Source: Nitrososphaeria archaeon
GTDB lineage: Archaea; Thermoproteota; Nitrososphaeria; Conexivisphaerales; UBA164
Assembly (NCBI GenBank): GCA_049967195.1
Contig: JBMFTE010000003.1
Location: 1-48,436 of the forward strand
DNA length: 48,436 bases
Direction: 5' to 3'
Shown: positions 6,709 through 29,246 of the stretch, piece by piece
How positions within the stretch are numbered: position 1 is the stretch's first letter
Layout: each line of letters begins with the position of its first letter
Translations under genes and position numbers: made by a program
The notes under the pieces: generated by a model
What the model was told of the DNA's origin: nothing
Seen by the model: the letters and a program-made list of their open reading frames with translations, nothing else
Databases searched by the model: none

Positions 6709-7911
6709 TTGTTCCCATTTGGAGATATTAACGATTTTAAGATTGACATGGACCAAGAGCACGAACTGTTCAGGAAGTCAATAAGGCAGTTCTGCGAAGA
6801 GAAACTGACGCCGATAATTATGGAAGTTGAACGGACGAATGACATTCCACGGGGAGTGATTGAAGATGCAAAAAACCTCGGCCTTACAGGCATAGGCATA
6901 CCGCAGAAATATGGGGGGCAGGGGGGCGACATGAGGATGATGGTGATAATGTCCGAAGAGATTTCGAGGGTTCTCCCCTCGTTCGGCACAATGTTGCTGG
7001 TGAACCACCTTTTTGTGGACCCTCTAATTATTTTTGGCACCGAAGAACAGAAATCAAAGTACGTTGTGCCTGTGGCCACGGGGAAGGCGCTGGCAGCTCA
7101 TGCCAGCACTGAACCCGGAGCCGGAAGCGATGTGGCCGGCATAAGCACAGCCGCCAGAAAGGTTGAATCAGGGTGGGTGCTTAACGGCCGTAAGGCATTC
7201 ATAACAAACGCCGACAGGGCTGACTTTTTCATAGCCTCGGCTAGGACGTCTCCTGTAAATCCGCAGTCCCGGTGGAGGGGGCTTTCGACATTTATTGTGG
7301 AAAAAGGGTTCAGTGGGGTAGAAATAGGGCACAAGTTTGACGTGATTGGACTGAGGGGTGAACAGCCAAATGAAGTCATTTTCAACGATGCTGCCGTGCC
7401 GGAAGCCAACCTTGTGGGTAAGCCTGACGAGGGATTTAAGGTTGTAGTTACAACCTACGATTACTCCCGGATACTCATAGCAGCTCAGGCAGTAGGCATT
7501 GCACAGGCAGCTTTTGAAATGGCGTTCAATTACTCAACCCAGAGGAAGGCATTTGAAAAGCCACTGGCTTCTTTCGAAGGCATCGCTTTCAAGATATCTG
7601 ACATGCTGATGGAGCTCGAGGCCTCCAGGCTTTTGACTTACTGGGCAGCCTACCTCGCAGACTCCAAGAGGCCGGAGTTTTACATGGCATCGTCTATAGC
7701 CAAAACGTATTCCACAGAAACGGCCGAAAAGATGGCATCACTTGCAATAAAGATACACGGCGGTGCCGGCGTGGACCGCGAAACTGGCGTTGAAAGGCTT
7801 CTCAGGGATTCGGTGATAACCACGATATATGAAGGGGCTAATGACATACAGAGGCTGACCGTGTTCAGGAGCCTGCTCAAAATGGTTTCAAAGAACCTAG
7901 AGGTGTCCTAG
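6709..7911 (+). CDS. Acyl-CoA dehydrogenase (canonical homomeric type)
   Basis: All FAD and catalytic motifs are present: TEPGAGSD, LNGRKAFIT, RKAF, IHGGAG and IYEGA. Confidence 0.95.
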   Translation: MFPFGDINDFKIDMDQEHELFRKSIRQFCEEKLTPIIMEVERTNDIPRGVIEDAKNLGLTGIGIPQKYGGQGGDMRMMVIMSEEISRVLPSFGTMLLVNHLFVDPLIIFGTEEQKSKYVVPVATGKALAAHASTEPGAGSDVAGISTAARKVESGWVLNGRKAFITNADRADFFIASARTSPVNPQSRWRGLSTFIVEKGFSGVEIGHKFDVIGLRGEQPNEVIFNDAAVPEANLVGKPDEGFKVVVTTYDYSRILIAAQAVGIAQAAFEMAFNYSTQRKAFEKPLASFEGIAFKISDMLMELEASRLLTYWAAYLADSKRPEFYMASSIAKTYSTETAEKMASLAIKIHGGAGVDRETGVERLLRDSVITTIYEGANDIQRLTVFRSLLKMVSKNLEVS

Positions 7912-9063: not shown

Positions 9064-9620
9064 AATTCAATGCCCTTTCTTGCAGCCAGACCCGCCATAT
9101 ATGGGTGCTTTATTTCCCTCATCTCTGTCACAAGGTCCGCCGCATCAATCATCGCCTGAGTGGCATAACGACCGGTGATCACAAGCTCCACGCCACGCGG
9201 CCTTTCTTTCAGCAGTTTCAGCACTTCCTTTTCCCCTATGAGCCCCATGTGCACAGCAGTGGCAAGCTCGTCCAGCACCAGCACATCAAATTTGCCGGAA
9301 ACAAGGGCCCTGCCGGCCCACTTTAAGCCTTTCATGACCATTGCGACATAATCAGCCGGCGGCTTGCCTGGCTCATAAATCACCACCGAAGGTCCCGTGA
9401 TGTTTTTGTCTGTGGTTATAAAGTAGTTCATGCCATAGAACCGTTCAGTTATGTTGCTATGCCTTTTCAGTATTCTTGATTCGCCATAGCAGCCGACTTT
9501 CATAAAATGCACAAGCGCGACCTTAAGGCCCCAGCCTGCTGCCCTTACTGAAAGCCCAACAGCGGCGGTGGTCTTGCCCTTTCCATTTCCAGTGTAAATT
9601 TCCACCAGACCAAGTTCCAT
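9060..9620 (-). CDS. cobA: Cob(I)alamin adenosyltransferase, CobA/BtuR type
   Basis: YTGNGKGKTTAA P-loop, LVLDE, VITGR, and KHPY...KGIEF. Confidence 0.93.
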   Translation of the reverse strand: MELGLVEIYTGNGKGKTTAAVGLSVRAAGWGLKVALVHFMKVGCYGESRILKRHSNITERFYGMNYFITTDKNITGPSVVIYEPGKPPADYVAMVMKGLKWAGRALVSGKFDVLVLDELATAVHMGLIGEKEVLKLLKERPRGVELVITGRYATQAMIDAADLVTEMREIKHPYMAGLAARKGIEF

Positions 9621-12130: not shown

Positions 12131-12534
12131 TTTAGCCTCCTGCACCTGCTCATTATAAAGCGGGATATTTCGTCAATGCTCGAGCCTGGTCCAAATACTG
12201 CGCTAACGCCGATCTTCACAAGCCTTGGCTTGTCTGATTCAGGTATTATGCCGCCCCCTATCAGCAGCACATCGTCAATTTTGTTCTGCTTCATCAGACG
12301 AGCTACCCTCCTGAACTGGTACATGTGGGCCCCGGACAGTACGCTCAATCCGATCACGTCCGCGTCCTCTTCTATTGCGGCCCTGACGATGTCCTCAGGT
12401 GTCTGCCTGATCCCGGTGTATATGACGTCAAATCCCCTTTCCATCAAGGACCTGGCGAGCACTTTTGCCCCACGGTCATGCCCGTCCAGACCCGGCTTGG
12501 CGATTATGACCCTGATCCTCCTTTCGCCACTCAT
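12127..12534 (-). CDS. icmB: Cobalamin-binding small subunit of the acyl-CoA mutase
   Basis: DGHDRG base-off/His-on motif, GLSVLSG and GGGIIP. Confidence 0.9.
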   Translation of the reverse strand: MSGERRIRVIIAKPGLDGHDRGAKVLARSLMERGFDVIYTGIRQTPEDIVRAAIEEDADVIGLSVLSGAHMYQFRRVARLMKQNKIDDVLLIGGGIIPESDKPRLVKIGVSAVFGPGSSIDEISRFIMSRCRRLK

Positions 12535-12652
12535 AATATTGATATTTTCCAGAAGAGTTTAATAAATATTTAATTGTTGCATGAAATTTTATGAAAATTA
12601 ATTGCAGCTTAAGCGATTAACATCTAAATTATTATATGGGTTATTGCAGATA

Positions 12653-14704
12653 ATGCCCATGGATGACATGCTAAAGCGCCTTTATGAGCCTTCGACAATT
12701 GCAGTTGTTGGTCCTTCACCAAATAGCAACAATTTGGCAACGGTTATCCTGAGCAACCTGCTTTCAGCAAGCAGGGAAGGCAGGCTCAGCGCAGGCATTT
12801 ACGCCGTAAACCCGCTCTATGAGGAATGCCTTGGCCTGAAATGCAAAAAAGGACTGGAAGAGGGCACGGACTTGGCAATAATTGCCGTCCCCACAAGGCT
12901 TGCCGAAGATTACCTGCTGCAGGCCCAGAATGCTAGCACCAGTGTCGCGATCGTCATATCAGGCGGTTTCAGCGAAAGCGGAGGTAAATCTCTCAGGAAT
13001 GTTGTGCACGGAACGAGGGTGCTTGGTCCGAACACGATAGGCGTTGTAGACCCTTACAGCGGCATAAACACGCTGTTCCTCCCGAATTACAAGGCAGCCT
13101 CTGACGGCGCCAGCCTTAGGTCAATACCGGACCCTGTGAAAGGACGCGTCGCAATAATTGCCCAGAGCGGGGGGATCAGTATTTCACTCTATGACGAACT
13201 GCTGAGTTCAGGAATCGGCATCAGGTCACTTACATGCCTCGGAAATTCCGACGACATAGATGCCGCAGAAATCGTGGAATATTTTTCTGAAGACGGCCTG
13301 ACGGACCTGATCGCCCTCTACCTGGAGGGGGTTCAGGATGGGAGGAAACTCATGGACGCAATATCAAGGGCCGCAGTTAAAAAGAAGGTAGTTGCCATAA
13401 TCGCAGGCTTAAGCGAAGCCGGGAAAAGGGCCACGTCTTCCCATACCGCTTCAATCGTCAGCAACTCAGATGTTTACCTCGCAGCGATAAAGCAGGCCGG
13501 GGCGCTTCCAGTAAGGGATTTTAGAGATTTCATTGCGCTTATTAAGGCGTACCAGATGATCGGTACAGTAAAAGGAAGGGGGGTTGCCGTGCTGACAAAC
13601 AGCGGAGGTGCTGGCGTGCTTGGCGCTGATGAGGCGTCGCTCAGCGGAATGGATGTACCCCCCCTGCACGACAGGCTTGCCGGGTTAAGGGAAAAGGGGG
13701 TGCTGCCGGGAATAGCAAGCGTAGAAAACCCGGTAGATGTAAGCGCATCCGGCGACGACAGGAGCATTGAAGCCGTCTATGAAAGCCTTATGAAATTTGA
13801 CGACATAAACTCCGTCGTGCTGGTGAGCACCCACTACCCTCCAGGCATAACCGACATGCTGCCTTCCAAGATAGCCGGCATTTACCGCAAATCCGGAAAA
13901 CCTACCGTGGCCGTGGAGCTCGGGAGGTCCCCGTGGTCTAACCGCATCAGGGAAATCTACGATGCGAATGGCATACCTTCCGTGGATTCGCCCCAGCAGG
14001 CTGCGCGCATTCTTGCGTTACTTTGCAGGCTAAACGAAATTGAGCCTGCATGGAATCCTGAAATGGGGCACAGCGGAACTACTCTTGCAGCTGGGGTGCA
14101 CATGGAGCCCGAGCTTACGGACATCGTTGGTGCATTCGGCTTTAAAACCCCTCAGTGGACATGGGTGGAAAGCGAGGACGGCCTGCTCAAAGTCAGGTAC
14201 CCTGCTGCCCTGAAGGTTTTTTCAGGCAACCTGATGCACAAAACTGAAGCGGGGGCTGTAAGGGTAAACGTGCGCAGGGAGGATGCTATGACAACATTCA
14301 AGGAACTCCACAGAGCTTTCCCAGATGGAAGGGTTTATGCGCAGGAAATGGTCAGTGGCGTTGAGATCAGGGTTGGTGTAGCCAGCGACAGTGCCTTTGG
14401 GAAGTATATTGACATTGGGGCAGGTGGAGTCCTGACGGAGCTTTTGAGGGACCACAGCACAAGGATAGCCCCGGTTACTCCAAGCGAGGCTTCGAAGATG
14501 CTTGAGGAACTAAAAATGGCTCCTCTCCTTAGGGGGTACAGGGGAGGGGTGGCCGCGGACCTGGCATCGCTTGCAGATTCAATTTCGTCTCTTTCAGCGT
14601 GGGCAGCATCACTTAAAGGGCTCAGGGAAATGGAGATCAACCCGCTGATCGTAAACAGGACCGGCTCCTACGCCGTTGATGTACGTGCAACAGTCGAACC
14701 ATGA
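12653..14704 (+). CDS. ADP-forming acyl-CoA synthetase, fused alpha-beta
   Basis: GPNTIG, QSGG, SHT (phospho-His), NSGG, NPVD, and ATP-grasp motifs HKTEAG and EINPL. Confidence 0.9.
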   Translation: MPMDDMLKRLYEPSTIAVVGPSPNSNNLATVILSNLLSASREGRLSAGIYAVNPLYEECLGLKCKKGLEEGTDLAIIAVPTRLAEDYLLQAQNASTSVAIVISGGFSESGGKSLRNVVHGTRVLGPNTIGVVDPYSGINTLFLPNYKAASDGASLRSIPDPVKGRVAIIAQSGGISISLYDELLSSGIGIRSLTCLGNSDDIDAAEIVEYFSEDGLTDLIALYLEGVQDGRKLMDAISRAAVKKKVVAIIAGLSEAGKRATSSHTASIVSNSDVYLAAIKQAGALPVRDFRDFIALIKAYQMIGTVKGRGVAVLTNSGGAGVLGADEASLSGMDVPPLHDRLAGLREKGVLPGIASVENPVDVSASGDDRSIEAVYESLMKFDDINSVVLVSTHYPPGITDMLPSKIAGIYRKSGKPTVAVELGRSPWSNRIREIYDANGIPSVDSPQQAARILALLCRLNEIEPAWNPEMGHSGTTLAAGVHMEPELTDIVGAFGFKTPQWTWVESEDGLLKVRYPAALKVFSGNLMHKTEAGAVRVNVRREDAMTTFKELHRAFPDGRVYAQEMVSGVEIRVGVASDSAFGKYIDIGAGGVLTELLRDHSTRIAPVTPSEASKMLEELKMAPLLRGYRGGVAADLASLADSISSLSAWAASLKGLREMEINPLIVNRTGSYAVDVRATVEP

Positions 14705-14909: not shown

Positions 14910-15173
14910 ATGTATCGCCCAGTTTTAAGGCAAAAGTGGAACGTGATCATCGACGCCGACAGATGCAAGGGATGCGAAATATGCGTGAACGCCTGCCCTG
15001 AACAGAACCTTCAGCTTTCAAAGAGTATCAACGGCCTGGGCTACCATTATGTCGAATTTAGCTTTCACGGCAAAAGGGGCGACTGCACTGGCTGCAATAT
15101 ATGTTACAAAGTGTGCCCGGATTATTCAATCCTCGGGGTGGTTTCAGGTGAAGAGGCTGCTAATGGGAGCTGA
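14910..15173 (+). CDS. 2x[4Fe-4S] ferredoxin, delta subunit of 2-oxoacid:ferredoxin oxidoreductase
   Basis: CKGCEICVNACP and CTGCNICYKVCP; first gene of the oxidoreductase operon. Confidence 0.9.
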   Translation: MYRPVLRQKWNVIIDADRCKGCEICVNACPEQNLQLSKSINGLGYHYVEFSFHGKRGDCTGCNICYKVCPDYSILGVVSGEEAANGS

Positions 15174-16185
15174 AGCGATAGCAGAAGCGGCAGTTGACGC
15201 CGGTCTTGAAGCTTATTTTGGATATCCGATAACCCCCAGCAGCGAAATTATGGAGAACCTTGCGCTTCTACATGCCAGCCACAGAAGCGATAAATTCAAG
15301 GTTTATTTCCAGTCGGCAAGCGAGGTTGAATCGATTAACCTGCTAATGGGCGCCGGTGCTGCAGGCCATATTGCCATGACAGCGACTTCAGGCCCGGGAT
15401 TAAGCCTTATGGCGGAGGGCATTTCGTATGCCTACACTTCGGAAATCCCCCTGGTAATAGTTAATGTTAACCGGGGCGGCCCCGGGCTTGGAAATGTGGC
15501 ACCGGAGCAGAGCGATTACCTCTTTGTGACTAAATCCCTAGGACATGGCGGCAGCAAGGCCATAGTGCTTGCGCCCAGCTCAATTCAGGAGGCCATGAAC
15601 CAGGTCCAGATGGCCTTTGAGCTAAGTTTCAAGTTCAGGATGCCCGTGATAATTTTAACCGATGCGATAATAATACACATGCTGGAGAGCGTTGATCAGG
15701 ACCATCTGCTTCCCGTAAGCGTGGACTCAGGCTGGAGTGCGAGGGGGAGGAACGGCGGGGAGAGGCACCTGATAAACAGCATTTACCTTGAACCGGCCGA
15801 ATTCAGGGAAATAAAGGTTAAGCTGGAGGAAAAGTGGAAGACCGTTGAACCCTTGGGCGAGTGTTTTATGTGCGAGGACGCGGAAACCCTGTTTGTGGCA
15901 TACGGTATAAGTGCCAGAATAGCAATGGAAGCAGCAGCAGAACTGAGGGATAGGGGGATAAGGGCTGGCGTTTTCAGGCCAATAACGCTAAATCCATTTC
16001 CAGGGAAGATGCTCATGAATGCAGCCAGAAACAGCGACAGGATAATCGCCATTGAGATGAATGAGGGGCAGATGGTGCATGATGTGCAGTACTGGATTAG
16101 AAGGGATGTGGAGCTTGTCCCGTTCATGGGTGGAATTTATCCTGACACCGAGGAGGTGATAGAAAAGTGCAAGCAAAGCAGCTGA
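15148..16185 (+). CDS. 2-oxoacid:ferredoxin oxidoreductase alpha subunit (VorB-like, 2-ketoisovalerate type)
   Basis: GYPITPSSE, TATSGPG, RGGPGLGN..PEQSDY, GHG and EMNEGQM; probable GTG start 15148. Confidence 0.88.
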   Translation: MKRLLMGAEAIAEAAVDAGLEAYFGYPITPSSEIMENLALLHASHRSDKFKVYFQSASEVESINLLMGAGAAGHIAMTATSGPGLSLMAEGISYAYTSEIPLVIVNVNRGGPGLGNVAPEQSDYLFVTKSLGHGGSKAIVLAPSSIQEAMNQVQMAFELSFKFRMPVIILTDAIIIHMLESVDQDHLLPVSVDSGWSARGRNGGERHLINSIYLEPAEFREIKVKLEEKWKTVEPLGECFMCEDAETLFVAYGISARIAMEAAAELRDRGIRAGVFRPITLNPFPGKMLMNAARNSDRIIAIEMNEGQMVHDVQYWIRRDVELVPFMGGIYPDTEEVIEKCKQSS

Positions 16186-16955
16186 GCGCTGTTTTCCCTG
16201 GGGCTGTAAATTCATATTGCCCTGGCTGCGAGCACGGCCTTTTGTTAAAGTTCATTGCCATGGCGCTAGAGGAGCTTGGAATAACTGAAAAGGCGGTAAT
16301 GGTTGGATCTGTTGGATGCTCTACCCTCGCATTTAAGTTTCTCAACGTTGATTATGTACAGGCGCCACACGGAAGGGCACCGGCCATAATGACCGGGATA
16401 AAGGAGGTGGAGCCCGGCGCAATAGTGTTTGCAGTTCAGGGAGACGGAGATGCCCTTTCAATAGGGCTTCAAGAGCTTATCCACGCCGCCAACAGGGGAA
16501 TCCCGGTTACAGTTTTTATGTACAACAACATGGTTTTCGGAATGACCGGGGGGCAGATGGCTCCAACCACTCCCGAGGGAATGGTCACAACTACCACCCC
16601 CTTCGGCAGGAACACTAAAACGAGCGGGCCACCGATTAACTCCTGCGAACTGCTTTCCTGCCTTTCCGGGCCATCATATATCAGGAGGGTTATCATAGCT
16701 CCGAAACCCGTCCAGCTGAAGGACAGGGTGATGTACTCCTCCAAGGAAGCCAATGAATCCTACAGGGCTATAGTTTCAGCGCTCAGGACCCAGATGATGG
16801 GAGGGTTTTCATATGTTGAATTTCTCGGAACATGTAACGTAAACTGGAAGATGAGTATAATCGATTCAAAAAAATATGCGCATGAGGTCAGCGCCAAAGT
16901 TTACCCGCCGCGGCTGTTCAGGGACAGGTTTGGAGTTGATTCAGTTGAAGGCTAG
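16167..16955 (+). CDS. 2-oxoacid:ferredoxin oxidoreductase beta (TPP-binding) subunit
   Basis: CPGCEHG, VGCS, HGRAPA and GDGD...NN..FGMTGGQ. Confidence 0.92.
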   Translation: MQAKQLSAVFPGAVNSYCPGCEHGLLLKFIAMALEELGITEKAVMVGSVGCSTLAFKFLNVDYVQAPHGRAPAIMTGIKEVEPGAIVFAVQGDGDALSIGLQELIHAANRGIPVTVFMYNNMVFGMTGGQMAPTTPEGMVTTTTPFGRNTKTSGPPINSCELLSCLSGPSYIRRVIIAPKPVQLKDRVMYSSKEANESYRAIVSALRTQMMGGFSYVEFLGTCNVNWKMSIIDSKKYAHEVSAKVYPPRLFRDRFGVDSVEG

Positions 16956-17526
16956 GATTATCATATCCGGAAGGGGAGGGCTTGGCGTGGTTGAAATGGG
17001 TAACATGCTTGCCTACCTATTTATGATTAGGGGGTTTTCCACAACCGTTGTTCCAACGTATGGTCCCCAGACGCGGGGGGGTTTTGTTGAAAGTGTCGTG
17101 GTAATACAGGACAAGCGCGTATTAAACCCTATCCCTACAAAGTTCGACGTGCTGATAGCCATGGACGTACCGGCACTTAACAGGATTAAGGACCTAATGC
17201 CTTACGGTACAATATTCTTCAATTCTTCCTTGGTCAACGGGGAGTGGCCCAACGCGGTATATATACCTGCAACTGAGATAGCAGAAAAGGTAGCCGGGAA
17301 TAAAATCAGGGAACCGCGCGTAACCTCAAACGCATCCATGCTTGGTGCCCTTTCAAAAATAATGCAGCTGAGTAAAGGCGACCTCAATGAAGCAATTTCA
17401 AACATATTAAGCGACAAGCCGAAACAGGCTATACAGCTCAACATAGACATAGCTGATGCAGGATACAACTATGCCGAAAGCGAATTGGAAAAAATAAAAA
17501 ATCCCCTGCCATTTTTAATCAAATAA
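16945..17526 (+). CDS. 2-oxoacid:ferredoxin oxidoreductase gamma subunit
   Basis: GRGGLG, YGPQTRGG and NASMLGA; TTG start downstream of GGAG (start uncertain). Confidence 0.88.
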   Translation: MKARIIISGRGGLGVVEMGNMLAYLFMIRGFSTTVVPTYGPQTRGGFVESVVVIQDKRVLNPIPTKFDVLIAMDVPALNRIKDLMPYGTIFFNSSLVNGEWPNAVYIPATEIAEKVAGNKIREPRVTSNASMLGALSKIMQLSKGDLNEAISNILSDKPKQAIQLNIDIADAGYNYAESELEKIKNPLPFLIK

Positions 17527-19536: not shown

Positions 19537-19944
19537 ATGGAAGTTGGCGTGCTAAAGGAAATTATTGAAAATGACCCCTTCCTGAAGCTGCTAGGCATCA
19601 GGGTAGAAAAAATACAGGCTGGGTCATGCAAGCTTGTACTGAACTACAGGAGTGACCTCACAAGGTTTGGCAACATCCTGAACGGTGGTGTCACGGCAAC
19701 CCTAGCTGATGCGGCAGGCGGGTGCGCCGCCCTATCATATAACCTTAGCAAAAACGAAGTTACCGTTGACCTGGACGTTTCATATTTGAGGCCAATCTCT
19801 GAAGGCCCTGTTGTGGCAGAATCATCAATTGTAAAAAGCGGGGAAAGCCTTACGTTCACGATCACAAACATATATGACGGGAAGGGAAACCTGTGCGCCG
19901 TGGCAAAGGGAACGTACTTTTATCTTGATGAATTCAATATTTAG
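19537..19944 (+). CDS. PaaI-family hotdog thioesterase
   Basis: PFLKLLGI, NGGVTATLAD and VTVDLDVSYLRP. Confidence 0.88.
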   Translation: MEVGVLKEIIENDPFLKLLGIRVEKIQAGSCKLVLNYRSDLTRFGNILNGGVTATLADAAGGCAALSYNLSKNEVTVDLDVSYLRPISEGPVVAESSIVKSGESLTFTITNIYDGKGNLCAVAKGTYFYLDEFNI

Positions 19945-20998
19945 CGCTCTCCCCTCCAAGAAGCTCTCTTGAAAGCTCCGACATGTCTGATATGCGGTTG
20001 CTAGTGAGCAGTTCCAGTGTCATTGTATCCCTGTAGAATCTTTCAACACCAGAATCCTCTATGTATCCATAGCCCCCATGCACCTGTAGAGACGCCCTTG
20101 AAACCCTTTTTGAAAATTCAAGTGCAAGCTCCCTGAGCATCATACCCTCCTTGACGCTTGTGATGTTGTACAGGTACTTTTCGTATATGTTAAATTCGGA
20201 TAAAAGCCGGGCAATGGAAAAGGCTATTGGCTGGAACTCTATAAGGTGCACATCGAACGCCTGCCTCTCCTTTGCATAGCTGACCGCCATGTCAAGCGCT
20301 GCTTCGCTCATTCCCAGCGCCATGGCTGAAACAGGATATGCCAATTCGTTGTAAAGGTTCTGCACTTCCCTCTCGCCACCGCTGCTGATGAGAATTGACT
20401 TCACCTCCGCGCCGTTAAATGCCACAGTAGAAAACTTGAGCCCCCTGAATCCGAGCTTCCTTGAGTCGTTTACAACATCAAAACCGCTGTCGACAAGCGC
20501 CAGCTGGCTGTCGTTTCCTGACTTTGCAAGCACAAGGCACAACTGGGCACTGGCATTTGGAACAAGGTCTGCAGTTCCGCTCAGGGTGGAACCTTCAATG
20601 GATACACTGCTTCCGCTAAGCAGGTAATTGATAATTGTACCAGATGCACTGCCTGATGCTATGCCGGGAACAATTTCCTGGGCCAGTTCCTTTGTTCCAT
20701 ACCTCAAAACCGGGCTGATGAACAGCGAATTCTGGAGCAAAACGTACATAGCCACAGAAGGTGAATGTTTGGCCAGCGCTTCAAGAAGCACCGTGTACCC
20801 ATTTTCGTCGAGCCCCGCACCCCCGTATTCCACGGGCGCCAGAGCACCGAGGAATCCCTTTTCAGCAAGACTGTTTAGAATCCCTTGAGTTACCCCTTCC
20901 CTCTCTATTTTGGGCACCAGCGGGTCTATCTCCTTCGCTGAAAACTCCTCGACGACCTGCTTTAACAGTTGTAACTCTTCACTGAGCAATTTGATCAC
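19934..20998 (-). CDS. Acyl-CoA dehydrogenase, probable non-catalytic subunit of a heteromeric ACAD
   Basis: ACAD fold with ERQAF and QVHGGYG, but no TEPxxGSD and no I[YW]EG catalytic Glu motif. Confidence 0.8.
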   Translation of the reverse strand: MIKLLSEELQLLKQVVEEFSAKEIDPLVPKIEREGVTQGILNSLAEKGFLGALAPVEYGGAGLDENGYTVLLEALAKHSPSVAMYVLLQNSLFISPVLRYGTKELAQEIVPGIASGSASGTIINYLLSGSSVSIEGSTLSGTADLVPNASAQLCLVLAKSGNDSQLALVDSGFDVVNDSRKLGFRGLKFSTVAFNGAEVKSILISSGGEREVQNLYNELAYPVSAMALGMSEAALDMAVSYAKERQAFDVHLIEFQPIAFSIARLLSEFNIYEKYLYNITSVKEGMMLRELALEFSKRVSRASLQVHGGYGYIEDSGVERFYRDTMTLELLTSNRISDMSELSRELLGGESAKY

Positions 20999-22106
20999 CC
21001 TGTATTGCCCTCTTTACAAGGGTTCTCGCAATTACAAGCTTTTCGATTTCGCTGGTACCCTCCCATATTTCAGTTATCTTGGAGTCCCTGTACAGCCTTT
21101 CAAGCCTCGTAAGCAGGCCTCTCTGCCCCATATATTCCAAGGCGCTGTCAGTAACTGAGTTGGCAACCTCCGCGGAAAAGTACTTGGCCATGCTGGTCAG
21201 GGCAGGGTCTGGGTTGAACTGGAAGACAAGCGATGCCGCTTTGTAGGTCAGCAAGCGCGCTGCCTCAATCTTTGTTGCAGATTCAGCCAAAACAAATTGC
21301 AGGCTCTCCTCATTTGACCCGGCCATTTTGACATAGTTCAGCAGCTCGTCAAGGGCACCCTGGGCTATCCCAACCGACTGGGCTGCAACGTAAACCCTGC
21401 TTATGTTAAAAAAGGTCATAATATAGTAAAACCCCTTCCCCACTTCCCCGACTATATTTTCTTTTGGAACCTTCACCCCTTCAAACTTGATCTCTGCGGT
21501 GTCAGTTGCCCTCATTCCCAACTTACCCTTTAGCTTGCTGACTGAAACACCAGGCCATTGCCTTTCAACAATTGCGACGCTCATCCCGTGGTGACGCTTT
21601 TCCTTTGAAGGTGGAGGCGAAGTCCTGGCAAGCACGTAGAAGAAATCAGCAATTGTCCCGTTGGTTATGAACATCTTCTGACCGTTGAGCAGGAACTCGT
21701 CATCTGACTGCTCGAGTTTGCTGCTGATGCCGGCCACGTCGCTGCCAGCTCCTGGTTCGGTAACCGCGACCCCGCTGATCTTGCTGCCGTTTAATACCGG
21801 TTCCATGTACCTTTGTTTTTGCCCGTCCGTACCGTACAGGAGAAGCAGTTCCGAGCCGAAAACTGACGCGAGTATGGACAGCCCTAGCCCCGGATCCACC
21901 CTGCAGAACTCCTCCATCGTCAGCAGCACGCCCCAGGGGTTATCTATCCTGACCAGCCCGGCTTCAAACGCCTTTTTCCTCAGTTCATATGGATAAAGCT
22001 CTTCCAGGTCATGCCTTGAAGCAGTTTCCTCCTTGAATTCCTCGTTGGCAAATTTCCTTGCCTTCTGCCTTACTTCTTCTGCATCTTCAGGCAGGCTAAA
22101 ATCCAT
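20979..22106 (-). CDS. Acyl-CoA dehydrogenase, probable catalytic subunit of a heteromeric ACAD
   Basis: Has TEPGAGSD, NGQKMFIT and IWEGTSE, but lacks RxxF and QxhGG. Start MDFSL (a TTG at 22112 is also possible). Confidence 0.88.
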   Translation of the reverse strand: MDFSLPEDAEEVRQKARKFANEEFKEETASRHDLEELYPYELRKKAFEAGLVRIDNPWGVLLTMEEFCRVDPGLGLSILASVFGSELLLLYGTDGQKQRYMEPVLNGSKISGVAVTEPGAGSDVAGISSKLEQSDDEFLLNGQKMFITNGTIADFFYVLARTSPPPSKEKRHHGMSVAIVERQWPGVSVSKLKGKLGMRATDTAEIKFEGVKVPKENIVGEVGKGFYYIMTFFNISRVYVAAQSVGIAQGALDELLNYVKMAGSNEESLQFVLAESATKIEAARLLTYKAASLVFQFNPDPALTSMAKYFSAEVANSVTDSALEYMGQRGLLTRLERLYRDSKITEIWEGTSEIEKLVIARTLVKRAIQGDQIAQ

Positions 22107-22108
22107 GC

Positions 22109-23287
22109 TCAATCAACCCTCTCAAGAACCACAGCGTAGCCCTGTCCTCCACCAACACACAGCGTAGCTACTCCGTATTTTCCGTGCCTTTCATTCAGGA
22201 TTCTGGCAAGTGTGCCCGCGATCCTTGCTCCCGTGGCACCAAGCGGATGGCCTATGGCCACTGCCCCGCCGTGCACATTCACCCTTTCAGGGTCAATTCC
22301 TAGTTCCCTTATTGCGTAAAGTGTAACCACTGCAAATGCCTCGTTGATCTCCCAGAAATCGATATCATCAACCTTCAGCCCTGCCCTTTCAAGTGCCTTT
22401 CTGCTGGCAGGCACGGGCCCCTTTCCCATCAGGTCCGGCTCAACCCCAGCCCATCCGGCAGACCTGACCTTTGCCATCGGTTTCAGCCCATACTTTTCAA
22501 TCATTTTCTCTGATGCCAGCATCACCAGGGAAGCACCGGCATTTAGCGGAGAGGAATTTCCAGCCGTTATGACACCACCCTGCGCGAACGATGCCGGAAG
22601 GTTTCTTATCTGTTCAATTGAGGTATCAGCCCTTATACTCTGGTCCCTGTCAATAACCAGGCTTTTGCCCTGGTATTCCACGATGACCGGCATAAGTTCA
22701 TGGGAAAGCCATTCAATTGAGCCGGCTGCAAGCCTGTGGCTGCGGTAAGACCACTGGTCCATATCCTCCTTCTTTATCCCGCTCACCTGGGCAAGCTTTT
22801 CCGCAGTCAGGCCCATCACATATCCCACATTCATGTTATATCTCATGTATTCAGGCCTGACCAGCAGCCTGTAGCTCGGAGTTATGTGGGGGTTATCGCC
22901 CAGCGGAACATGGGTCATGTGCTCCATTCCGCCGGCTAGCACTATGCCAGAATTTCCCGTATCTATTTCCATAGCCCCCATAGTTATTGCTGCGAGGGAT
23001 GAAGAACACGCCCTATCTATGGCCATGCCCGGAACCTGAATTGGAAGGCTCGCAAGGAGAACCGGATGCCTTCCCCCGTACAGCCAGTTTTCTGACACCT
23101 GAAATGCACAGCCGGTTATAACGTCCCCTATGTCCATAGGGTCTATTTTGTTTTTCTTGACAGTTGAGCTTATCAGCGATGCCAGAACCTCGTCCATACG
23201 GAGCCCGTTGTAAACGTCCTTTTCAGGTTCCTTTGGCCTGGACCTTGAAAATGGCGACCTCAAATAATCCACAATATATGCTTCCAA
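22109..23287 (-). CDS. Acetyl-CoA C-acyltransferase (3-ketoacyl-CoA thiolase)
   Basis: RACSSS, NEAF, GHPLGATG and LCVGGG. Confidence 0.95.
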   Translation of the reverse strand: MEAYIVDYLRSPFSRSRPKEPEKDVYNGLRMDEVLASLISSTVKKNKIDPMDIGDVITGCAFQVSENWLYGGRHPVLLASLPIQVPGMAIDRACSSSLAAITMGAMEIDTGNSGIVLAGGMEHMTHVPLGDNPHITPSYRLLVRPEYMRYNMNVGYVMGLTAEKLAQVSGIKKEDMDQWSYRSHRLAAGSIEWLSHELMPVIVEYQGKSLVIDRDQSIRADTSIEQIRNLPASFAQGGVITAGNSSPLNAGASLVMLASEKMIEKYGLKPMAKVRSAGWAGVEPDLMGKGPVPASRKALERAGLKVDDIDFWEINEAFAVVTLYAIRELGIDPERVNVHGGAVAIGHPLGATGARIAGTLARILNERHGKYGVATLCVGGGQGYAVVLERVD

Positions 23288-23295
23288 AAATTATT

Positions 23296-25281
23296 TCACT
23301 TCCCCCTGTACACAGGCTTCCTCTTTGAAAGAAGGCTTGAAACCCCCTCTTTCAGGTCTTCTGTCCCGTACAGCACGCCCATGGCAGTTGATTCCAGGTC
23401 GAGCCCCACGTCCTCTGGAACCTCTGCGGCCTTGTTGATGAGCTTCTTTGCCAGGGCTGCTGCTATAGGGGCTGAAGACGACGCTATCCCCTGGGCATAT
23501 TTAAGAGCTTCTGCATCAACATCGCCATCGAACAGTTTTGCCACCAATCCCATGTCATATGCGTCCTTTCCGGTGATCCTTTCACCGGTTAATATCATGT
23601 GTAAGGCTCTTGACGCCCCAGCCAGCCTGGTCAGCCTCTGTGTGCCGCCCCAGCCGGGAACTAGCCCCAGCGTCACCTCAGGGAATCCCATTATAGAACT
23701 GCTGGTTGAAACCCTGATGTCGCATGCGAGCGCCAGCTCAAACCCGCCGCCAAGCACGTAACCCTTCAGTGATGCTATTACAACTTTAGGGATCTCGGTC
23801 AGCTTGCGGAAAACTCGCTCCCCCCTTCTTGAGAACTCCATAAATGAAGCCGCATCAGCAAAGTATGCGCTGAGGTCTGCCCCGGCAGAAAAATTCGCCC
23901 CTCCCCCGGTGATAATGACCACAAAGGTTTCCCGGTCGTTCCATATTTCGTCTATTGCCCTGTCAAGCTCATTTATCACATCAACGCTCAGCAGATTGAG
24001 CTTTGGCCTGTTAATGCTGATTCTGGCAATCCTGTCCGCAACTTTCTCCACACTTATCACCTTGTATCCAGCCGGCTGTTGCGCTGGTTGCTGTGTCGCA
24101 GCTGCTGCTTCTTCCGCTGGTCTGAGCTTGCCTTCGATGGCATCCCTGAGCCTGCCATCCCTGATGCTGGCAGCCGGCTCAAAGACGCTGCACTGGAATT
24201 CCTTTGAGAGCTGCTCAAGCTTTTCCTTTGCCTCAGAACTTGTCATACTCTGCGCCACGGAAACTGGACCAAACGGCCTGTTGAGCCCAAGCTTGACTGC
24301 TGTCTCAATATCATCCGGAGAAGCCACGCCGAGTTCTATCAGCTTTACAGCTTCGTTTACTTCAAGCATAAGCACGTCAAGGAGAGTTACCTTGTCCGTG
24401 GGGCTGGCTGAACCAATAACCGCCTTCCCAGAACTCCACTGGTAGAACCCCCTGCCCGTCTTTCTGCCGAGCAGGCCCTTTTCAACCATCTGCTTTATCG
24501 TGCTGCACTTTGCATAATCTTCAGAGATTTCCTTGGCATAGTAAACCATTGAATCGTACACCACGTCAATCCCCACAAAATCCATCAGCTCATACGGCCC
24601 CATTGGTAATCCCTGGGATTTGGCAAACAGGTCAACCTCTTCCGGCTTGGCAATGCCCTTGTCAAGGATCAGGCAGAAGTACAGCATTTCAGGAGCCGAA
24701 ATCCGGTTTACGATGAAGCCTGCCACATCCTTTCTTACCTTGACGGGCACCTTGCCCAGCCCTTTTATAACTTCATATACGACATTTACAACGTCTTCGC
24801 TTGTGCTGTCGCCCCTGATCACCTCAACCAGCTTCATGATAACCGGGGGGTTAAAGAAGTGCACCCCAAGGAACCTAGACGGATTGGATACACTCTTTGA
24901 AAGTTCGGTTATCCTGATGTTGGATGTATTTGAACCTATTATGGCATCGGACCGGGCATATGAACTTATCTCACGAAACACAGTATCCTTTATTTCCTGC
25001 TTTTCAGGAACAGCTTCAATGATCAGGTCGGCGTCGCTTACACCTTCACTTATCTTTGTAAACGTCCTTATCCCTGCTACTATGCCCTGTGCGCTATCTT
25101 CGGTCATCGTCCCCCTCTTGACGAACCTTTCAAGGCTTTCCCTTATTTCCTGTATGGCCTTTTGGAGGGCGTCCTGGCTTACATCGATCAGGTTCACGGA
25201 AAAGCCCCTCATGGCAAAGAGCTCAGCTATCCCGTGACCCATTTCGCCCGCCCCTATTATCGCAACCCTATTAATTTCCAA
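23296..25281 (-). CDS. Fused 3-hydroxyacyl-CoA dehydrogenase / enoyl-CoA hydratase
   Basis: N-terminal GAGEMG and HFFNP; Ala/Gln/Pro linker; C-terminal FSAGAD, GGGFELAL and FPEV.LG..PGWGG. Confidence 0.95.
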   Translation of the reverse strand: MEINRVAIIGAGEMGHGIAELFAMRGFSVNLIDVSQDALQKAIQEIRESLERFVKRGTMTEDSAQGIVAGIRTFTKISEGVSDADLIIEAVPEKQEIKDTVFREISSYARSDAIIGSNTSNIRITELSKSVSNPSRFLGVHFFNPPVIMKLVEVIRGDSTSEDVVNVVYEVIKGLGKVPVKVRKDVAGFIVNRISAPEMLYFCLILDKGIAKPEEVDLFAKSQGLPMGPYELMDFVGIDVVYDSMVYYAKEISEDYAKCSTIKQMVEKGLLGRKTGRGFYQWSSGKAVIGSASPTDKVTLLDVLMLEVNEAVKLIELGVASPDDIETAVKLGLNRPFGPVSVAQSMTSSEAKEKLEQLSKEFQCSVFEPAASIRDGRLRDAIEGKLRPAEEAAAATQQPAQQPAGYKVISVEKVADRIARISINRPKLNLLSVDVINELDRAIDEIWNDRETFVVIITGGGANFSAGADLSAYFADAASFMEFSRRGERVFRKLTEIPKVVIASLKGYVLGGGFELALACDIRVSTSSSIMGFPEVTLGLVPGWGGTQRLTRLAGASRALHMILTGERITGKDAYDMGLVAKLFDGDVDAEALKYAQGIASSSAPIAAALAKKLINKAAEVPEDVGLDLESTAMGVLYGTEDLKEGVSSLLSKRKPVYRGK

Positions 25282-25751: not shown

Positions 25752-26483
25752 ATGAACTATAGTATTTTTGTCCTGGTCAAGGCAGTTGCTGACGACGTAA
25801 GAATAGATCCGAAAAGCCGGGAACCCTCAGTTGCCGGTTCCAAGTATAAAATGGATGACATAAGCAGGAACGCGGTTGAAGAAGCCGTAAAAATCAAGGA
25901 AAAGCACGGCGGAAAAGCCGTGGGAATCATATTCGGGGACGATTATGCAAGCCTGGTCATTAAGGAGGCGCTGGCTATGGGTCTCGACGAAGGGGTGATG
26001 ATAAAGGGGTACAGGGAAAATGACCCCAGAATCACGGCACAGGTGATTTCAAAAAAGCTGCAGGAAGGGCCATGGGACCTGGTTCTTATGGGATATTCGT
26101 CCGCGGACAGTTACACGGCACAGCTTCCGGCCAGGATTGCCAGGCTGGTGAACAGACCACTCATGGGAAACGCCGTTAAACTTGAGCTGAACGAACGCAA
26201 GGCAAGGGCCACCCTTGAACTTGAGGATTTCAATGCCCTGGTTGAGGGCGAGCTGCCGCTTGTTATATCTGTTGCCCAGGAAATCAATGTTCCAAGGATA
26301 CCGACGTTGCTGCAGATTATGGCTGCATCAAGGAAGCCGCTCAGAGTTGAAACCCCTGCAATAAATTACCTTGATGACTCCAAAGTGGTAAGCAACGTCG
26401 CGCCTCAATCTGCAAGAAAGAAGGTAATTTATGAAGATATAGAAAAGGGGATTGACGAGGTATCAAAAGTTCTGAAGACCTAG
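25752..26483 (+). CDS. etfB: Electron transfer flavoprotein beta subunit
   Basis: AVEEAVKIKE, ALAMGLDEG, GYSSADSYTAQ and INVPRIP. Confidence 0.92.
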   Translation: MNYSIFVLVKAVADDVRIDPKSREPSVAGSKYKMDDISRNAVEEAVKIKEKHGGKAVGIIFGDDYASLVIKEALAMGLDEGVMIKGYRENDPRITAQVISKKLQEGPWDLVLMGYSSADSYTAQLPARIARLVNRPLMGNAVKLELNERKARATLELEDFNALVEGELPLVISVAQEINVPRIPTLLQIMAASRKPLRVETPAINYLDDSKVVSNVAPQSARKKVIYEDIEKGIDEVSKVLKT

Positions 26484-27373
26484 GACCTGAGGGCCTGGAC
26501 CAGCTTTGGCACGACAACGTACAGGTCGCCAACCAGCCCATAGTCGCATTCATTAAATATCGGGGCGCTTTTGTCCCTGTTGATTGCTATAACGATTTTT
26601 GAATCCCTCATTCCAACTATGTGCTGGATCTGGCCTGATATTCCAAGCGCAATATAGATCTTCGGCTTGACCCTCTTTCCCGAGAGGCCGACCTGCCTTT
26701 CCTCCCCAAGCCAGTGCAGGTCTGAACAGACTGGCCTGCTACCGGCAAGCTCTGCCCCAAGTGCCGTAGCCAGCTGCTGAGCTACTACCAGGCCCTCATT
26801 TTTTCCTATACCCCTCCCCACGGCAACTATGATGTCTGCCTTAGTCAGGTCAACTGACCCCTTTTGTTTTTCCTCCCTTGAAACAAGGTTTATGCCACCA
26901 CTCTGGACATGTACAGTTGTTACCTCATGCTCATATGGCTTATCCGGAACCAGCGGGTTTGTAACGCCAGCCATAACGGTAAAGGCTCTGGCCGATGTCA
27001 CCTTTTCCATCACCGTCTTCCCGCCATAATAGAATCTGGTCACCCTTGCCCGACCATCCTCCAGCCCAAATGACATTATTTCCGATTCCATGGGCATGTT
27101 CAGGTCCTGCGAGACCATTGCAGCCACTTCCCTACCTGCTGTTGTTGCTCCAGCAAAAAAGTAGTCATAACCAGTTACAATGTCTTCAAGTGATTGAGCA
27201 ACGGCCTGAGGGTCGTATGGATAACCGTCTAACAGAAATACCTTTCTGGAAGCAAAGAGCTGGGCTTCACTGCCTTGCCCCGCAAAGGCTACGTCAGTTT
27301 CCATTTTCCCGTTAAGAAAGTTCAGCATCTCCTTTACGAGTTCCGCACTTTCAGAAAATACGAGGCCCTTCAT
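26480..27373 (-). CDS. etfA: Electron transfer flavoprotein alpha subunit
   Basis: VGRG, GSRP, QVGLSG, GISGQIQH and APIF; likely start ATG 27373. Confidence 0.93.
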   Translation of the reverse strand: MKGLVFSESAELVKEMLNFLNGKMETDVAFAGQGSEAQLFASRKVFLLDGYPYDPQAVAQSLEDIVTGYDYFFAGATTAGREVAAMVSQDLNMPMESEIMSFGLEDGRARVTRFYYGGKTVMEKVTSARAFTVMAGVTNPLVPDKPYEHEVTTVHVQSGGINLVSREEKQKGSVDLTKADIIVAVGRGIGKNEGLVVAQQLATALGAELAGSRPVCSDLHWLGEERQVGLSGKRVKPKIYIALGISGQIQHIVGMRDSKIVIAINRDKSAPIFNECDYGLVGDLYVVVPKLVQALRS

Positions 27374-27404
27374 AAATTTAATTTGCGCCGCGATGTTATA
27401 AACT

Positions 27405-29246
27405 TTAGCCACTTTTATCCATATGCTCTTCAACAAACTGGGACAGGTCAATTACCTTCATCGACCCACTCAGCTTTACGCTGGAAGCGTCGTTCAGCAT
27501 TGCATTGCAAAAGGGGCACAATGTCACCGTTACCTTTGCCCCGGTGGATGACAGCTGGTCAAGCCTTTCATGGCTGATCCTCTTTTCTTCCGGGACATCG
27601 TACCAGTAATTAGCACCGCCAGCCCCGCAGCAAAATGTCCTCTCGCCGCTCAGCCTGGGCTCCTTCAGATTCGCAGCACTGGAAAGTATGAGCCTCTGAG
27701 GCTCAACAACCCCGTTGTACCTGGCCAAATAGCAGGGGTCATGCACTGTTACGTCCTCCTCGGCCTTTTTGAGCCTGACCAACCCTTTTTTAATGAGCTC
27801 CTCAATCAGCTGGGATTCATGATATACCTTTATCCCCCTCATTGATGGGTCAATGCTGCCGTAGTCATTTGTGAACGAGTTATAGCCGTGAGCGCATAGC
27901 ACGACCAGCTTTTTTACCCCATATTTTTTGAATATTTCAATGTTTGTAAGAGCATAGTTCTGGAATGTGCCCTCTTCACCAAGCCTGCGCGCCGGGTCTC
28001 CGCAACACGTTTCCTCATCACCAAGGTATGCCAGCTTATCCGAAAGCCCAGCTTCCTTGATGATTTTAAGTAGTGACCTCACGCTTGCCCTGGACCTTTC
28101 ATCAAAGCTTGGCATGCAGCCGACCCAGAGAAGATATTCAAACGGCTTTCCCTCCCTGGCCTCGCTTATCCCAAATTCCTCCTTTATCCATGAATTTCTT
28201 CCATAGTTTGGCAGACCCATCGAGTTCCCACCCTGCATCAAGTTCATCAGCAGGGACGATTTCTTCTGGTCCAGCCTGTTCTTTTCCACCATGGTCCGCC
28301 GCAATGAATAGATCAGCCCCAGATGGTCTACCCCCACTGGGCAGGAATAAACGCAGGCACCGCAGGTTGTGCACGACCAAACCTCGTCATCCGATATTAC
28401 ATGGAATGGATCTGTCTCTTCCCCGTTGCTTCCTTTGAACACACTCACTTTCCGGACCAGCACTCTAGGTGAAAGTATCCTCCCCGTAGCGGTTGCAGGG
28501 CAGGCCGCCTCACAGGCCCCTATTTCGACGCATGAATCACATGAAGCTATGGTATCGCTGCTCAGCTCACCTATTTTATCCACCCCCATTTTTACCTGCG
28601 CCGCGTCGACCTCGCCCGACTGTATTTTTTTCAGTTCAAATGGAAGCGGTATGTGGCTTACAGGCCTGTCAAAGTTCTTGATCAGGTTGATTGACGGCTT
28701 AGCATAGTAAACCGCTATGAAGAGGTTCTTTACGGCATCAAGCAGGTTTGCAAGCCATCCAAAACCGCTTATCCACTCGACTATGAGCTGGGCAATCGTA
28801 AAAGTTATCACAACTATCAGGATTACCTGCATCTTCTTCGAGCTTAAAATCATTTCTTCACTGGCTTTAAGTTTCCTGTTGAGCATGTCGCTTCTGTCAA
28901 GTAGCTGCAGCCTCCAATACAGTGACAGCAGGAGCCCCACAATTGCTGGCAGGGTCAGCGCCAGCATCAAATAAAGTAGGGGCCAGAGATATGGGAGCAC
29001 CGGCCCCAGCAGGGCAAATGCTATGGAGAGCAGGAGGCCGACAACTATTGCAAAGTGCATCCTGTCTATTGAATCGCCACTGATTAGCCTGTTTATTTCT
29101 TCGACTCCCAGTTTCCATAATCGGTTGACGCTTAGGGCCACCGAATACCTCTTGCTCCAGAGCCCAAACGTGTACAGTATTGAAATAACGCTGAGCAGGA
29201 CCAGCGCATATGTAAAGTAGAAGGCTATCTCGCCCACAAAGCTCAA
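27405..29246 (-). CDS. Membrane-anchored Fe-S oxidoreductase, HdrD/FadF/EMO-like (probable ETF:quinone oxidoreductase)
   Basis: N-terminal TM helices, ferredoxin motifs (CTTCGACVYSCP) and two CCG domains (CCGD, HDPC...CCGAGG); same strand directly upstream of etfA. Confidence 0.85.
   Translation of the reverse strand: MSFVGEIAFYFTYALVLLSVISILYTFGLWSKRYSVALSVNRLWKLGVEEINRLISGDSIDRMHFAIVVGLLLSIAFALLGPVLPYLWPLLYLMLALTLPAIVGLLLSLYWRLQLLDRSDMLNRKLKASEEMILSSKKMQVILIVVITFTIAQLIVEWISGFGWLANLLDAVKNLFIAVYYAKPSINLIKNFDRPVSHIPLPFELKKIQSGEVDAAQVKMGVDKIGELSSDTIASCDSCVEIGACEAACPATATGRILSPRVLVRKVSVFKGSNGEETDPFHVISDDEVWSCTTCGACVYSCPVGVDHLGLIYSLRRTMVEKNRLDQKKSSLLMNLMQGGNSMGLPNYGRNSWIKEEFGISEAREGKPFEYLLWVGCMPSFDERSRASVRSLLKIIKEAGLSDKLAYLGDEETCCGDPARRLGEEGTFQNYALTNIEIFKKYGVKKLVVLCAHGYNSFTNDYGSIDPSMRGIKVYHESQLIEELIKKGLVRLKKAEEDVTVHDPCYLARYNGVVEPQRLILSSAANLKEPRLSGERTFCCGAGGANYWYDVPEEKRISHERLDQLSSTGAKVTVTLCPFCNAMLNDASSVKLSGSMKVIDLSQFVEEHMDKSG

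Follow-up and report, generated by a model that had tools for sequence, protein, structure and literature searches.

Complementary motif loss in two overlapping archaeal genes points to a heteromeric acyl-CoA dehydrogenase

Results

Two overlapping genes share out the motifs of an acyl-CoA dehydrogenase

The DNA analysed here, called the window, is a stretch of 48,436 nucleotides from a Nitrososphaeria archaeon of the Conexivisphaerales (contig JBMFTE010000003.1, assembly GCA_049967195.1). On its minus strand lie two overlapping genes of the acyl-CoA dehydrogenase (ACAD) fold, which we call alpha and beta after the subunits they probably encode (Table 1). The three-domain ACAD fold (PF02771, PF02770 and PF00441) was found in both products, by Pfam matches in alpha and by an AlphaFold2 model containing the middle beta domain in beta. 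The true start of alpha is probably the ATG at 22106, giving the N-terminus MDFSLPED with which its homologs begin. For beta, two candidate starts lie at the junction, GTG 20998 and TTG 20989 in the minus-strand reading, and the TTG is probably the true one, matching the MLSEE start of the homologs. Depending on the beta start, the two genes share 11-20 nt in the window.

In a canonical ACAD dimer, both subunits hold each flavin adenine dinucleotide (FAD): one contributes its middle and C-terminal domains, and the other secures the ADP end with its RxxFG/QxHGGxG region, as in the structures of medium-chain ACAD (MCAD). In the gene pair, alpha keeps the flavin loop and the catalytic glutamate and has degenerate segments in place of RxxFG and QxHGGxG; beta keeps these last two motifs and has lost the loop and the glutamate. 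The first-pass annotation of the window had described this pattern from eight motif strings, all of which were located exactly in the sequence, and the losses it assigned to either gene were borne out by alignment with the canonical ACAD at 6709. That gene, which it had proposed as an internal control, indeed reads with all four motifs. Alpha also carries a deletion of 10 residues in its N-domain, which removes a 'YGGxGxD' loop that canonical ACADs possess and for which beta is near-invariant.

Table 1. Features of the window, beginning with the gene pair
Feature	Position	Strand	Remarks
alpha subunit gene (ACAD)	20979..22112	-	377 aa from TTG; Pfam N, M and C ACAD domains all matched
beta subunit gene (ACAD fold, without catalytic Glu)	19934..20998	-	354 aa from GTG; Pfam N and C domains only
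alpha/beta junction	20979..20999	-	alpha TGA 20981-20979 overlaps beta start; Shine-Dalgarno-like GGTGATC 20999-20993 precedes TTG
alpha TEPGAGSD, FAD isoalloxazine/ribityl loop, kept	21738-21761	-	motif read and 74-pair census
alpha IWEG with catalytic Glu351 (MCAD-type position), kept	21057-21068	-	Glu 74/74
alpha degenerate RxxFG-equivalent (YVKMAGSNEESLQF)	21294-21335	-	hypervariable in length and sequence in alpha family
alpha degenerate QxHGGxG-equivalent EYMGQRG	21117-21137	-	alignment and census
beta YAKERQAF (RxxF motif; expected contact, ADP part of partner's FAD), kept	20255-20278	-	census
beta LQVHGGYG (QxHGGxG), kept	20066-20089	-	census
beta degenerate TEP-equivalent GTIINYL, with deletion	20621-20641	-	alignment and census
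beta degenerate catalytic segment LELLTSN, no Glu at catalytic column	19997-20017	-	Glu 0/74
alpha N-domain DNPWG, site of 10-residue deletion	21930..21944	-	alignments
canonical ACAD, internal control, all four motifs	6709..7911	+	TEPGAGSD, QRKAF, IHGGAG, IYEG
thiolase	22109..23287	-	Pfam match; stop 2 nt before probable alpha ATG; conserved upstream partner
hydroxyacyl-CoA dehydrogenase/hydratase fusion	23296..25281	-	Pfam match
4HBT-type acyl-CoA thioesterase, convergent with beta	19537..19944	+	Pfam match
electron-transfer flavoprotein (ETF) beta	25752-26483	+	Pfam match
ETF alpha	26480-27451	-	Pfam match
CCG/4Fe-4S oxidoreductase	27405-29246	-	Pfam match
second ETF alpha and beta	36009-37208, 37055-37855		Pfam match
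FixC/ETF-QO-like flavoprotein	38148-39437		Pfam match
second cluster, thiolase	4769-5917
second cluster, stand-alone 3-hydroxyacyl-CoA dehydrogenase	7912-9063
corrinoid adenosyltransferase	9060-9620
methylmalonyl-CoA mutase	9621-11249
MeaB	11246-12145
ADP-forming acyl-CoA synthetase	12602-14704
2-oxoacid:ferredoxin oxidoreductase, three genes	15049-17526

The motif split is conserved across the archaeal family

At least 185 species-level genomes carry a relative of alpha, and the best 80 of the 185 genome stretches encoding one were taken as loci. By label, these loci fall into Thermoplasmatota (51), Nitrososphaerota (19), Thermoproteota (3) and 'Methanobacteriota' (2), with 5 unlabelled. The nearest relatives of the window pair itself are labelled Conexivisphaerales or Nitrososphaeria, and the nearest labelled records are metagenome-assembled genomes, plus 'Thermoplasmatales archaeon AK' (L150). 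One alpha homolog from the protein search (P0141) belongs to the cultured Sulfodiicoccus acidiphilus; its locus did not turn up in the genome scan.

A residue census over 74 archaeal alpha/beta pairs and 84 canonical ACADs revealed the same complementarity throughout. In alpha, four residues of TEPxxGSD (T, G, S, D) and the catalytic E are each present in 74/74 sequences, and the R of RxxFG is found in 13/74 and its F in 0/74. Both the H and the second G of QxHGG stand at 0/74, the Q is at 0/74 among the commonest residues of its column, and the Y of YxxxR is not the majority residue. Beta retains Y, R, F, Q and GG in 74/74 and H in 73/74, with 0/74 for the T of TEP and 0/74 for the catalytic E. 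The canonical ACADs keep all four motifs. The alpha family is variable, in length as well as in sequence, exactly in its lost segments, and the 24 columns that are invariant across 36 beta sequences concentrate in the two motifs that beta keeps. The pattern cannot be put down to chance in a single genome. Judged by sequence, beta is a member of the ACAD fold but not a catalytic one, because no beta in the census has a glutamate at the catalytic column.

In the protein collection, the beta family stands clearly apart. Relatives of beta, searched for among candidates sharing words with the query, score from 668 down to 190 bits, followed by 139 bits for ordinary ACADs, and a profile search found the same gap (379 to 204 bits); every name given by the sources is archaeal. 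The alpha family is larger there and better conserved (55-96% identity), again with archaeal names only. The smaller number of beta clusters (37) is an artefact of sensitivity and does not reflect orphan alphas, as adjacency in the genomes is 100%.

The two genes are always adjacent and evolve together

Loci were scored with hidden Markov models (HMMs) built from the alpha and beta alignments. In 77/77 loci whose DNA continues for 500 nt or more beyond alpha, beta follows alpha directly on the same strand; seven of the 77 betas, whose frame opens far upstream, score 343-433 bits. Another locus (L133) holds a partial beta in its last 310 nt, and two (L119, L131) end too early to judge. The pair is also present in 13/13 further loci from a second genome scan, and alpha stands upstream of beta in 8/8 loci seeded with beta. 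The distance from the alpha stop to the beta start is -11 to +5 nt in 76/76 pairs, L106 and L107, which both have beta, being outside this count. A motif resembling a Shine-Dalgarno sequence precedes the beta start in 67/76 loci, as counted with a loose motif set and without a shuffle control. In all complete loci, the reading frame is intact and the coverage of the beta HMM is full-length.

The identity between two genomes in alpha correlates with that in beta (r = 0.877, 2701 genome pairs), the mean pairwise identity being 0.60 for alpha and 0.38 for beta. For alpha, the ratio of nonsynonymous to synonymous substitution rates (dN/dS) comes to 0.045-0.050, and for beta to 0.081-0.107, with dS of about 1 or more and thus partly saturated; both genes are under purifying selection. 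The first-pass annotation had asked whether the two genes always occur together, which they do in all testable loci (77/77 and 13/13). It had also named absence or decay of beta in relatives as an observation that would speak against the pairing. The gene was instead found always adjacent and with a low dN/dS (0.08-0.11).

Structure models bring the kept halves together

A complex of alpha, beta and FAD was modelled from an alignment of each subunit. The runs scored 0.91, 0.91 and 0.92, whereas the best of three controls reached 0.00, on a scale whose mark was reached by 116/157 solved complexes and by 2/215 mismatched pairs; such a score attests a likeness to the ACAD dimer, not the binding of these two proteins. 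The predicted local distance difference test (pLDDT) value of the partner is no lower than 91, and 96% or more of the contacts recur between the runs. In the model, residues 121-125 of alpha (GAGSD) touch residues 246-248 of beta in the RxxF stretch, and residues 345-355 of alpha (IWEGTSE, with Glu351) touch residues 304-312 of beta (LQVHGGYGY). On the reciprocal side, the contacts are between the two degenerate regions. A comparison of homo- and hetero-oligomer models had been suggested at first pass as a check; the heteromer was modelled here, with the kept motifs placed face to face. When beta was modelled alone with AlphaFold2, it formed a complete three-domain ACAD fold (pLDDT 91.4, predicted template modelling score (pTM) 0.92), whose nearest solved structures are canonical ACADs such as MmgC, short-chain ACAD (SCAD) and Bcd, with TM-scores of 0.85-0.89.

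The pair sits in a probable beta-oxidation operon

A homolog of the thiolase lies upstream of alpha on the same strand in 78/80 loci, the exceptions being L158, which has none, and L169, which has too little upstream DNA. Further upstream, the dehydrogenase/hydratase fusion is found in 38/67 loci with at least 3.3 kb of upstream DNA, and the 4HBT thioesterase recurs downstream in loci of the Nitrososphaeria type. ETF-alpha homologs adjoin the thiolase-alpha-beta genes in 22/80 loci, mostly Thermoplasmata by label; ETF beta is usually present there too, and the CCG/4Fe-4S oxidoreductase in some. In the window, an acyl-CoA synthetase follows the ETF and oxidoreductase genes. The ETF at 25752-27451 and the oxidoreductase are the likely electron acceptors. 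No steroid genes and no hint of bulky substrates were found in the neighbourhood of the pair, in the window or in related loci. The host genome (1.19 Mb, 89% complete) contains three ACAD genes, namely the pair and the control at 6709. Taken by its gene context, the pair looks like a principal beta-oxidation dehydrogenase, feeding ETF.

The N-domain deletion of alpha may bear on this electron transfer. It sits just past a stretch aligning with MCAD residues of about 54-64, and helix C of MCAD (residues 50-60), together with a nearby hydrophobic pocket, docks the recognition loop of ETF, according to the account of this interaction in PMC3546729. Because alpha has deleted the loop that follows the ETF-binding helix of MCAD while beta keeps it, one could speculate that ETF might dock on the non-catalytic beta subunit.

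Other genes of related metabolism occur elsewhere in the window. A second ETF set is accompanied by a FixC/ETF-QO-like flavoprotein, and the canonical ACAD belongs to a second, small beta-oxidation cluster between a thiolase and a stand-alone 3-hydroxyacyl-CoA dehydrogenase. Beside the beta-oxidation genes lies a methylmalonyl-CoA mutase set, which suggests handling of propionyl-CoA, for example from odd- or branched-chain acyl-CoAs. An ADP-forming acyl-CoA synthetase and the three genes of a 2-oxoacid:ferredoxin oxidoreductase lie upstream of the operon.

Origin of the archaeal pair

For comparison with the bacterial alpha2beta2 ACADs of steroid catabolism, we used ten adjacent or fused ACAD pairs from the genome of Actinomadura meyerae. 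They can be regarded as genuine members of the bacterial family because one pair matches first, in the PDB, the solved heteromers Tcur3483/ChsE4 and Tcur3481/ChsE5. All ten pairs or fusions display the same complementary partition of motifs as the archaeal pair. The position of the catalytic base separates the two groups. In 74/74 archaeal alpha sequences, Glu stands at the MCAD-type column, with Ser (71) or Thr (3) at the helix-G column. The ten Actinomadura alpha-type units, in contrast, carry their Glu at helix G, as in IVD and LCAD; eight of them align at the MCAD-type column, and all eight lack Glu in it. The helix-G arrangement is shared by the canonical actinobacterial ACADs placed as sisters of the Actinomadura alpha-type units in the tree.

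Two IQ-TREE quick trees were calculated under LG+C20, with 72 and 62 rows. Of the 76 archaeal pairs, the first tree sampled 14 and the second 8, each with the window pair added; the canonical ACADs, drawn from the beta search of the protein collection and filtered to a length of 360-400 aa, numbered 18 and then 12, and there were 16 Actinomadura units, the fragmentary Act186u, Act186d, Act184C and Act180d being left out. In the better-sampled second tree, archaeal alpha (starred support of 100) is sister to canonical ACADs of Bathyarchaeia (starred, 95), and the bacterial alpha-type clade (starred, 100) is sister to canonical actinobacterial ACADs (starred, 96). Canonical ACADs from metagenome-assembled genomes of Bathyarchaeia (L237-L262) are the closest relatives of alpha outside the family, at about 40% identity; they occur as two same-strand paralogs about 1.3 kb apart, and the canonical HMM gives both a better score than the alpha HMM does.

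The alternative to a separate archaeal origin is that the pair belongs to one ancient alpha2beta2 lineage with the bacterial ChsE, Ipd, Scd and PimCD enzymes, by single origin or by horizontal transfer. The identical motif partition in the Actinomadura pairs is in keeping with such a lineage, and the archaeal betas group with the beta-type units of Actinomadura in both maximum-likelihood trees, with unstarred SH-like approximate likelihood ratio test (SH-aLRT) values of 83 and 93, which points against an independent origin, albeit by linking two long stems (1.04 and 0.51). A clade of archaeal and bacterial alpha was not rejected by the approximately unbiased (AU) test (p 0.395, and p 0.173 with a delta-lnL of 17.4 in the second dataset), but neither was a clade of archaeal alpha with archaeal beta (p 0.524, with a log-likelihood slightly above that of the free tree, and p 0.308 in the second dataset). 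As all four AU tests give p > 0.05, the trees neither prove nor exclude a shared origin of the archaeal and bacterial heteromers. The different catalytic-base column, the separate placement of the two alpha clades in the second tree, beside canonical ACADs of Bathyarchaeia and of actinobacteria respectively, and the fact that canonical enzymes rank first for both archaeal subunits in the PDB and NCBIfam tell against the common lineage. We consider it unlikely, although it deserves serious weight. The position of the catalytic base, the best-match similarity and the maximum-likelihood trees together favour an independent origin, which we regard as fairly probable on these comparisons, the AU tests not settling the matter. 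The first-pass suggestion of a possibly independent archaeal origin is favoured by these three lines of evidence, while the AU tests do not reject shared ancestry.

Within the archaea, the pair of a Caldisphaera sp. (L122, Thermoproteota) groups with those of loci labelled Methanobacteriota (L114) and Thermoplasmatota (L117). As this grouping appears in the alpha and beta subtrees alike (starred, 99 and 100), it suggests that the pair moved between phyla as a unit.

Discussion

We conclude that the two genes probably encode the subunits of one obligate heteromeric ACAD, because the conservation of their motifs is complementary, their adjacency, order and translational coupling never vary, both are under purifying selection, and the complex model unites the kept halves. 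The first-pass annotation had likewise predicted an obligate heteromer, with half the usual FAD sites, and this prediction, taken as one FAD and one active site per alpha-beta dimer, fits every computational test run. In such an enzyme, alpha would supply its own flavin half-site through the TEPxxGSD loop, together with the catalytic Glu, and beta would supply the cross-subunit half-site through the two motifs of its C-terminal domain (YxxxRxxF and QxHGGxG). One alpha-beta dimer would thereby hold one complete, composite FAD site and one active site, located on alpha, whereas the reciprocal site, made of beta's own half and alpha's cross half, would be dead on both sides. Two of these dimers would probably assemble into an alpha2beta2 tetramer that holds two FAD. 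The enzyme would act as the dehydrogenase of a conserved archaeal beta-oxidation module, consisting of thiolase, alpha and beta and often the hydroxyacyl-CoA dehydrogenase/hydratase fusion, and its electrons would probably pass to the neighbouring ETF and Fe-S oxidoreductase. Its most likely origin would be the duplication of an archaeal ACAD of MCAD/SCAD type followed by complementary degeneration, apart from the ChsE-type enzymes of bacteria.

Several points weigh against this interpretation. Adjacency and co-evolution are to be expected of any two genes in one operon. The high scores of the complex model may be a memory of the fold, since ACAD homodimers are among the solved structures. Of the three glycine columns in QxHGGxG, two still hold G in most alphas (66/74 and 67/74), and these leftover glycines may make some residual cross-subunit contact. 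Moreover, the stoichiometry (alpha2beta2 or alpha-beta), the substrate and the electron acceptor are all matters that we infer.

Beta could also be a non-catalytic paralog of the ACAD fold with a job of its own, such as a regulator, an assembly factor, an ETF adaptor or a scaffold, beside an alpha that works as a homomer and binds FAD in a modified way. Non-enzymatic proteins of the ACAD fold are known, beta has neither the catalytic Glu nor the TEP loop, and alpha is still close to MCAD and Bcd, at about 220 bits. Yet the invariant residues of beta are exactly the motifs that contact FAD across the subunit boundary, which would be purposeless unless beta sat in an ACAD-type dimer beside a subunit carrying FAD; alpha has lost exactly the motifs that beta keeps, and the complex model brings the kept halves together. 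We therefore hold a separate job for beta to be improbable. A beta decaying towards a pseudogene, with the complementary pattern incidental, was rejected as hardly credible: beta evolves faster than alpha and has no Pfam match to the middle domain, but its frame is intact and covered over the full length in complete loci, its dN/dS stays low, its invariant columns and universal presence are those of a conserved gene, and its predicted fold is confident.

Returning to the obligate heteromer, a fuller account can be offered tentatively, at somewhat less than an even chance. It would be an independent archaeal invention, derived from a duplicated MCAD-type homomer by complementary decay of the FAD half-sites, and it would serve as the main beta-oxidation dehydrogenase, not as a specialist for bulky substrates, in Thermoplasmatota and in Conexivisphaerales-like Nitrososphaeria, with a division of labour that may extend to the docking of ETF on beta.

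Heteromeric ACADs with half the active sites have so far been treated as peculiar to the bacterial catabolism of steroids, and perhaps of dicarboxylates, and have been explained by the need for a large cavity. The archaeal family is widespread in Thermoplasmatota, Nitrososphaerota and Thermoproteota and would have the same architecture in a plain beta-oxidation operon. If this is true, the heteromer architecture need not be tied to bulky substrates, and the family would provide a second, probably independent, natural experiment on the passage from a homo-oligomer to an obligate hetero-oligomer. Beta would furthermore be no second dehydrogenase, so that counts of 'acyl-CoA dehydrogenase family protein' would overstate the ACADs of these archaea; the host genome would have only two functional ACAD enzymes. 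In the full-text literature searched, no archaeal heteromeric ACAD was described, although primary papers on the bacterial family may mention one.

Comparison with known acyl-CoA dehydrogenases

The closest counterparts in architecture are the bacterial alpha2beta2 steroid ACADs, comprising ChsE4-ChsE5 (PDB 4x28), ChsE1-ChsE2 and IpdE1-IpdE2 of Mycobacterium tuberculosis, Tcur3481-Tcur3483 of Thermomonospora curvata (6wy8), and Scd of Pseudomonas and Comamonas. As presented in the sections cited from PMC11153573 and PMC8399759, the isoalloxazine-binding loop of the bacterial pairs is located on alpha, along with the substrate site and the catalytic Glu, and beta has the ADP-ribose-binding motifs only; in ChsE4-ChsE5 and ChsE1-ChsE2, beta contacts the ADP-ribose part of FAD, one FAD is bound per alpha-beta interface, and the heterotetramer is essential for activity. 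To the extent of these descriptions, the archaeal pair resembles the bacterial ones in consisting of two adjacent, co-oriented ACAD genes with a complementary partition. The first-pass annotation had called this split the defining feature of actinobacterial alpha2beta2 ACADs; the partition is indeed that of the bacterial pairs, but the proteobacterial Scd and the PimCD-like pairs, as far as their published outlines go, place it beyond the actinobacteria as well.

The archaeal subunits nevertheless form a different sequence family. Alpha scores 93-98 bits with 4x28_A (ChsE4) and 6wy8_B (Tcur3483), compared with about 220 bits with MCAD and Bcd, and beta scores 44.6 bits with 6wy8_A (Tcur3481), compared with 110 bits with MmgC. 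The N-domain deletion of 10 residues is found in archaeal alpha and not in the bacterial units. The contexts differ too, the archaeal pair residing in archaeal hosts and a generic beta-oxidation operon and the bacterial enzymes in a steroid-linked setting.

The pimeloyl-CoA dehydrogenase PimC-PimD (TIGR03204/TIGR03203) likewise has adjacent large and small ACAD subunits and acts on non-steroid acyl-CoAs. Pairs of the PimCD type and related dicarboxylate ACAD pairs have been proposed to be heterotetrameric, in the part of the preprint cited here (bioRxiv 10.1101/2025.02.21.639450). Archaeal alpha reaches 77.9 and 54.5 bits with the two PimCD models, whose cut-offs are 624 and 653, and archaeal beta has no match to a PimCD model at E <= 1e-10. 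No NCBIfam model, including pimC_large, pimD_small and IpdE2, passed its cut-off for either archaeal subunit, and membership in PimCD, IpdE or another NCBIfam equivalog was rejected.

CasC of Rhodococcus jostii, as sketched in PMC8399759, realises the same division of labour within one polypeptide of two fused ACAD domains. Unlike in CasC, the genes are separate in all 90 archaeal loci examined, among which no search was aimed at fused forms. In Actinomadura meyerae, single open frames of 722-758 aa (L181-L184) have an N-terminal beta-type and a C-terminal alpha-type unit, as in CasC; the frames were taken from stop to stop in high-GC DNA, and each is a putative fusion that could also be two in-frame genes.

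The closest relatives of both archaeal subunits, in sequence and in fold, are the canonical homotetrameric SCAD, MCAD and butyryl-CoA dehydrogenases (for example 1ege, 4l1f, 5lnx and 2vig). The MCAD-type catalytic Glu, a likely ETF acceptor and a beta-oxidation context are common to canonical SCAD/MCAD and the archaeal pair. The canonical subunits keep the four motifs, form homo-oligomers and bind one FAD each, whereas the archaeal pair splits the motifs between its two products. The architecture itself is already known from bacteria; new here are a different sequence family, archaeal hosts, another position of the catalytic base and a generic metabolic context.

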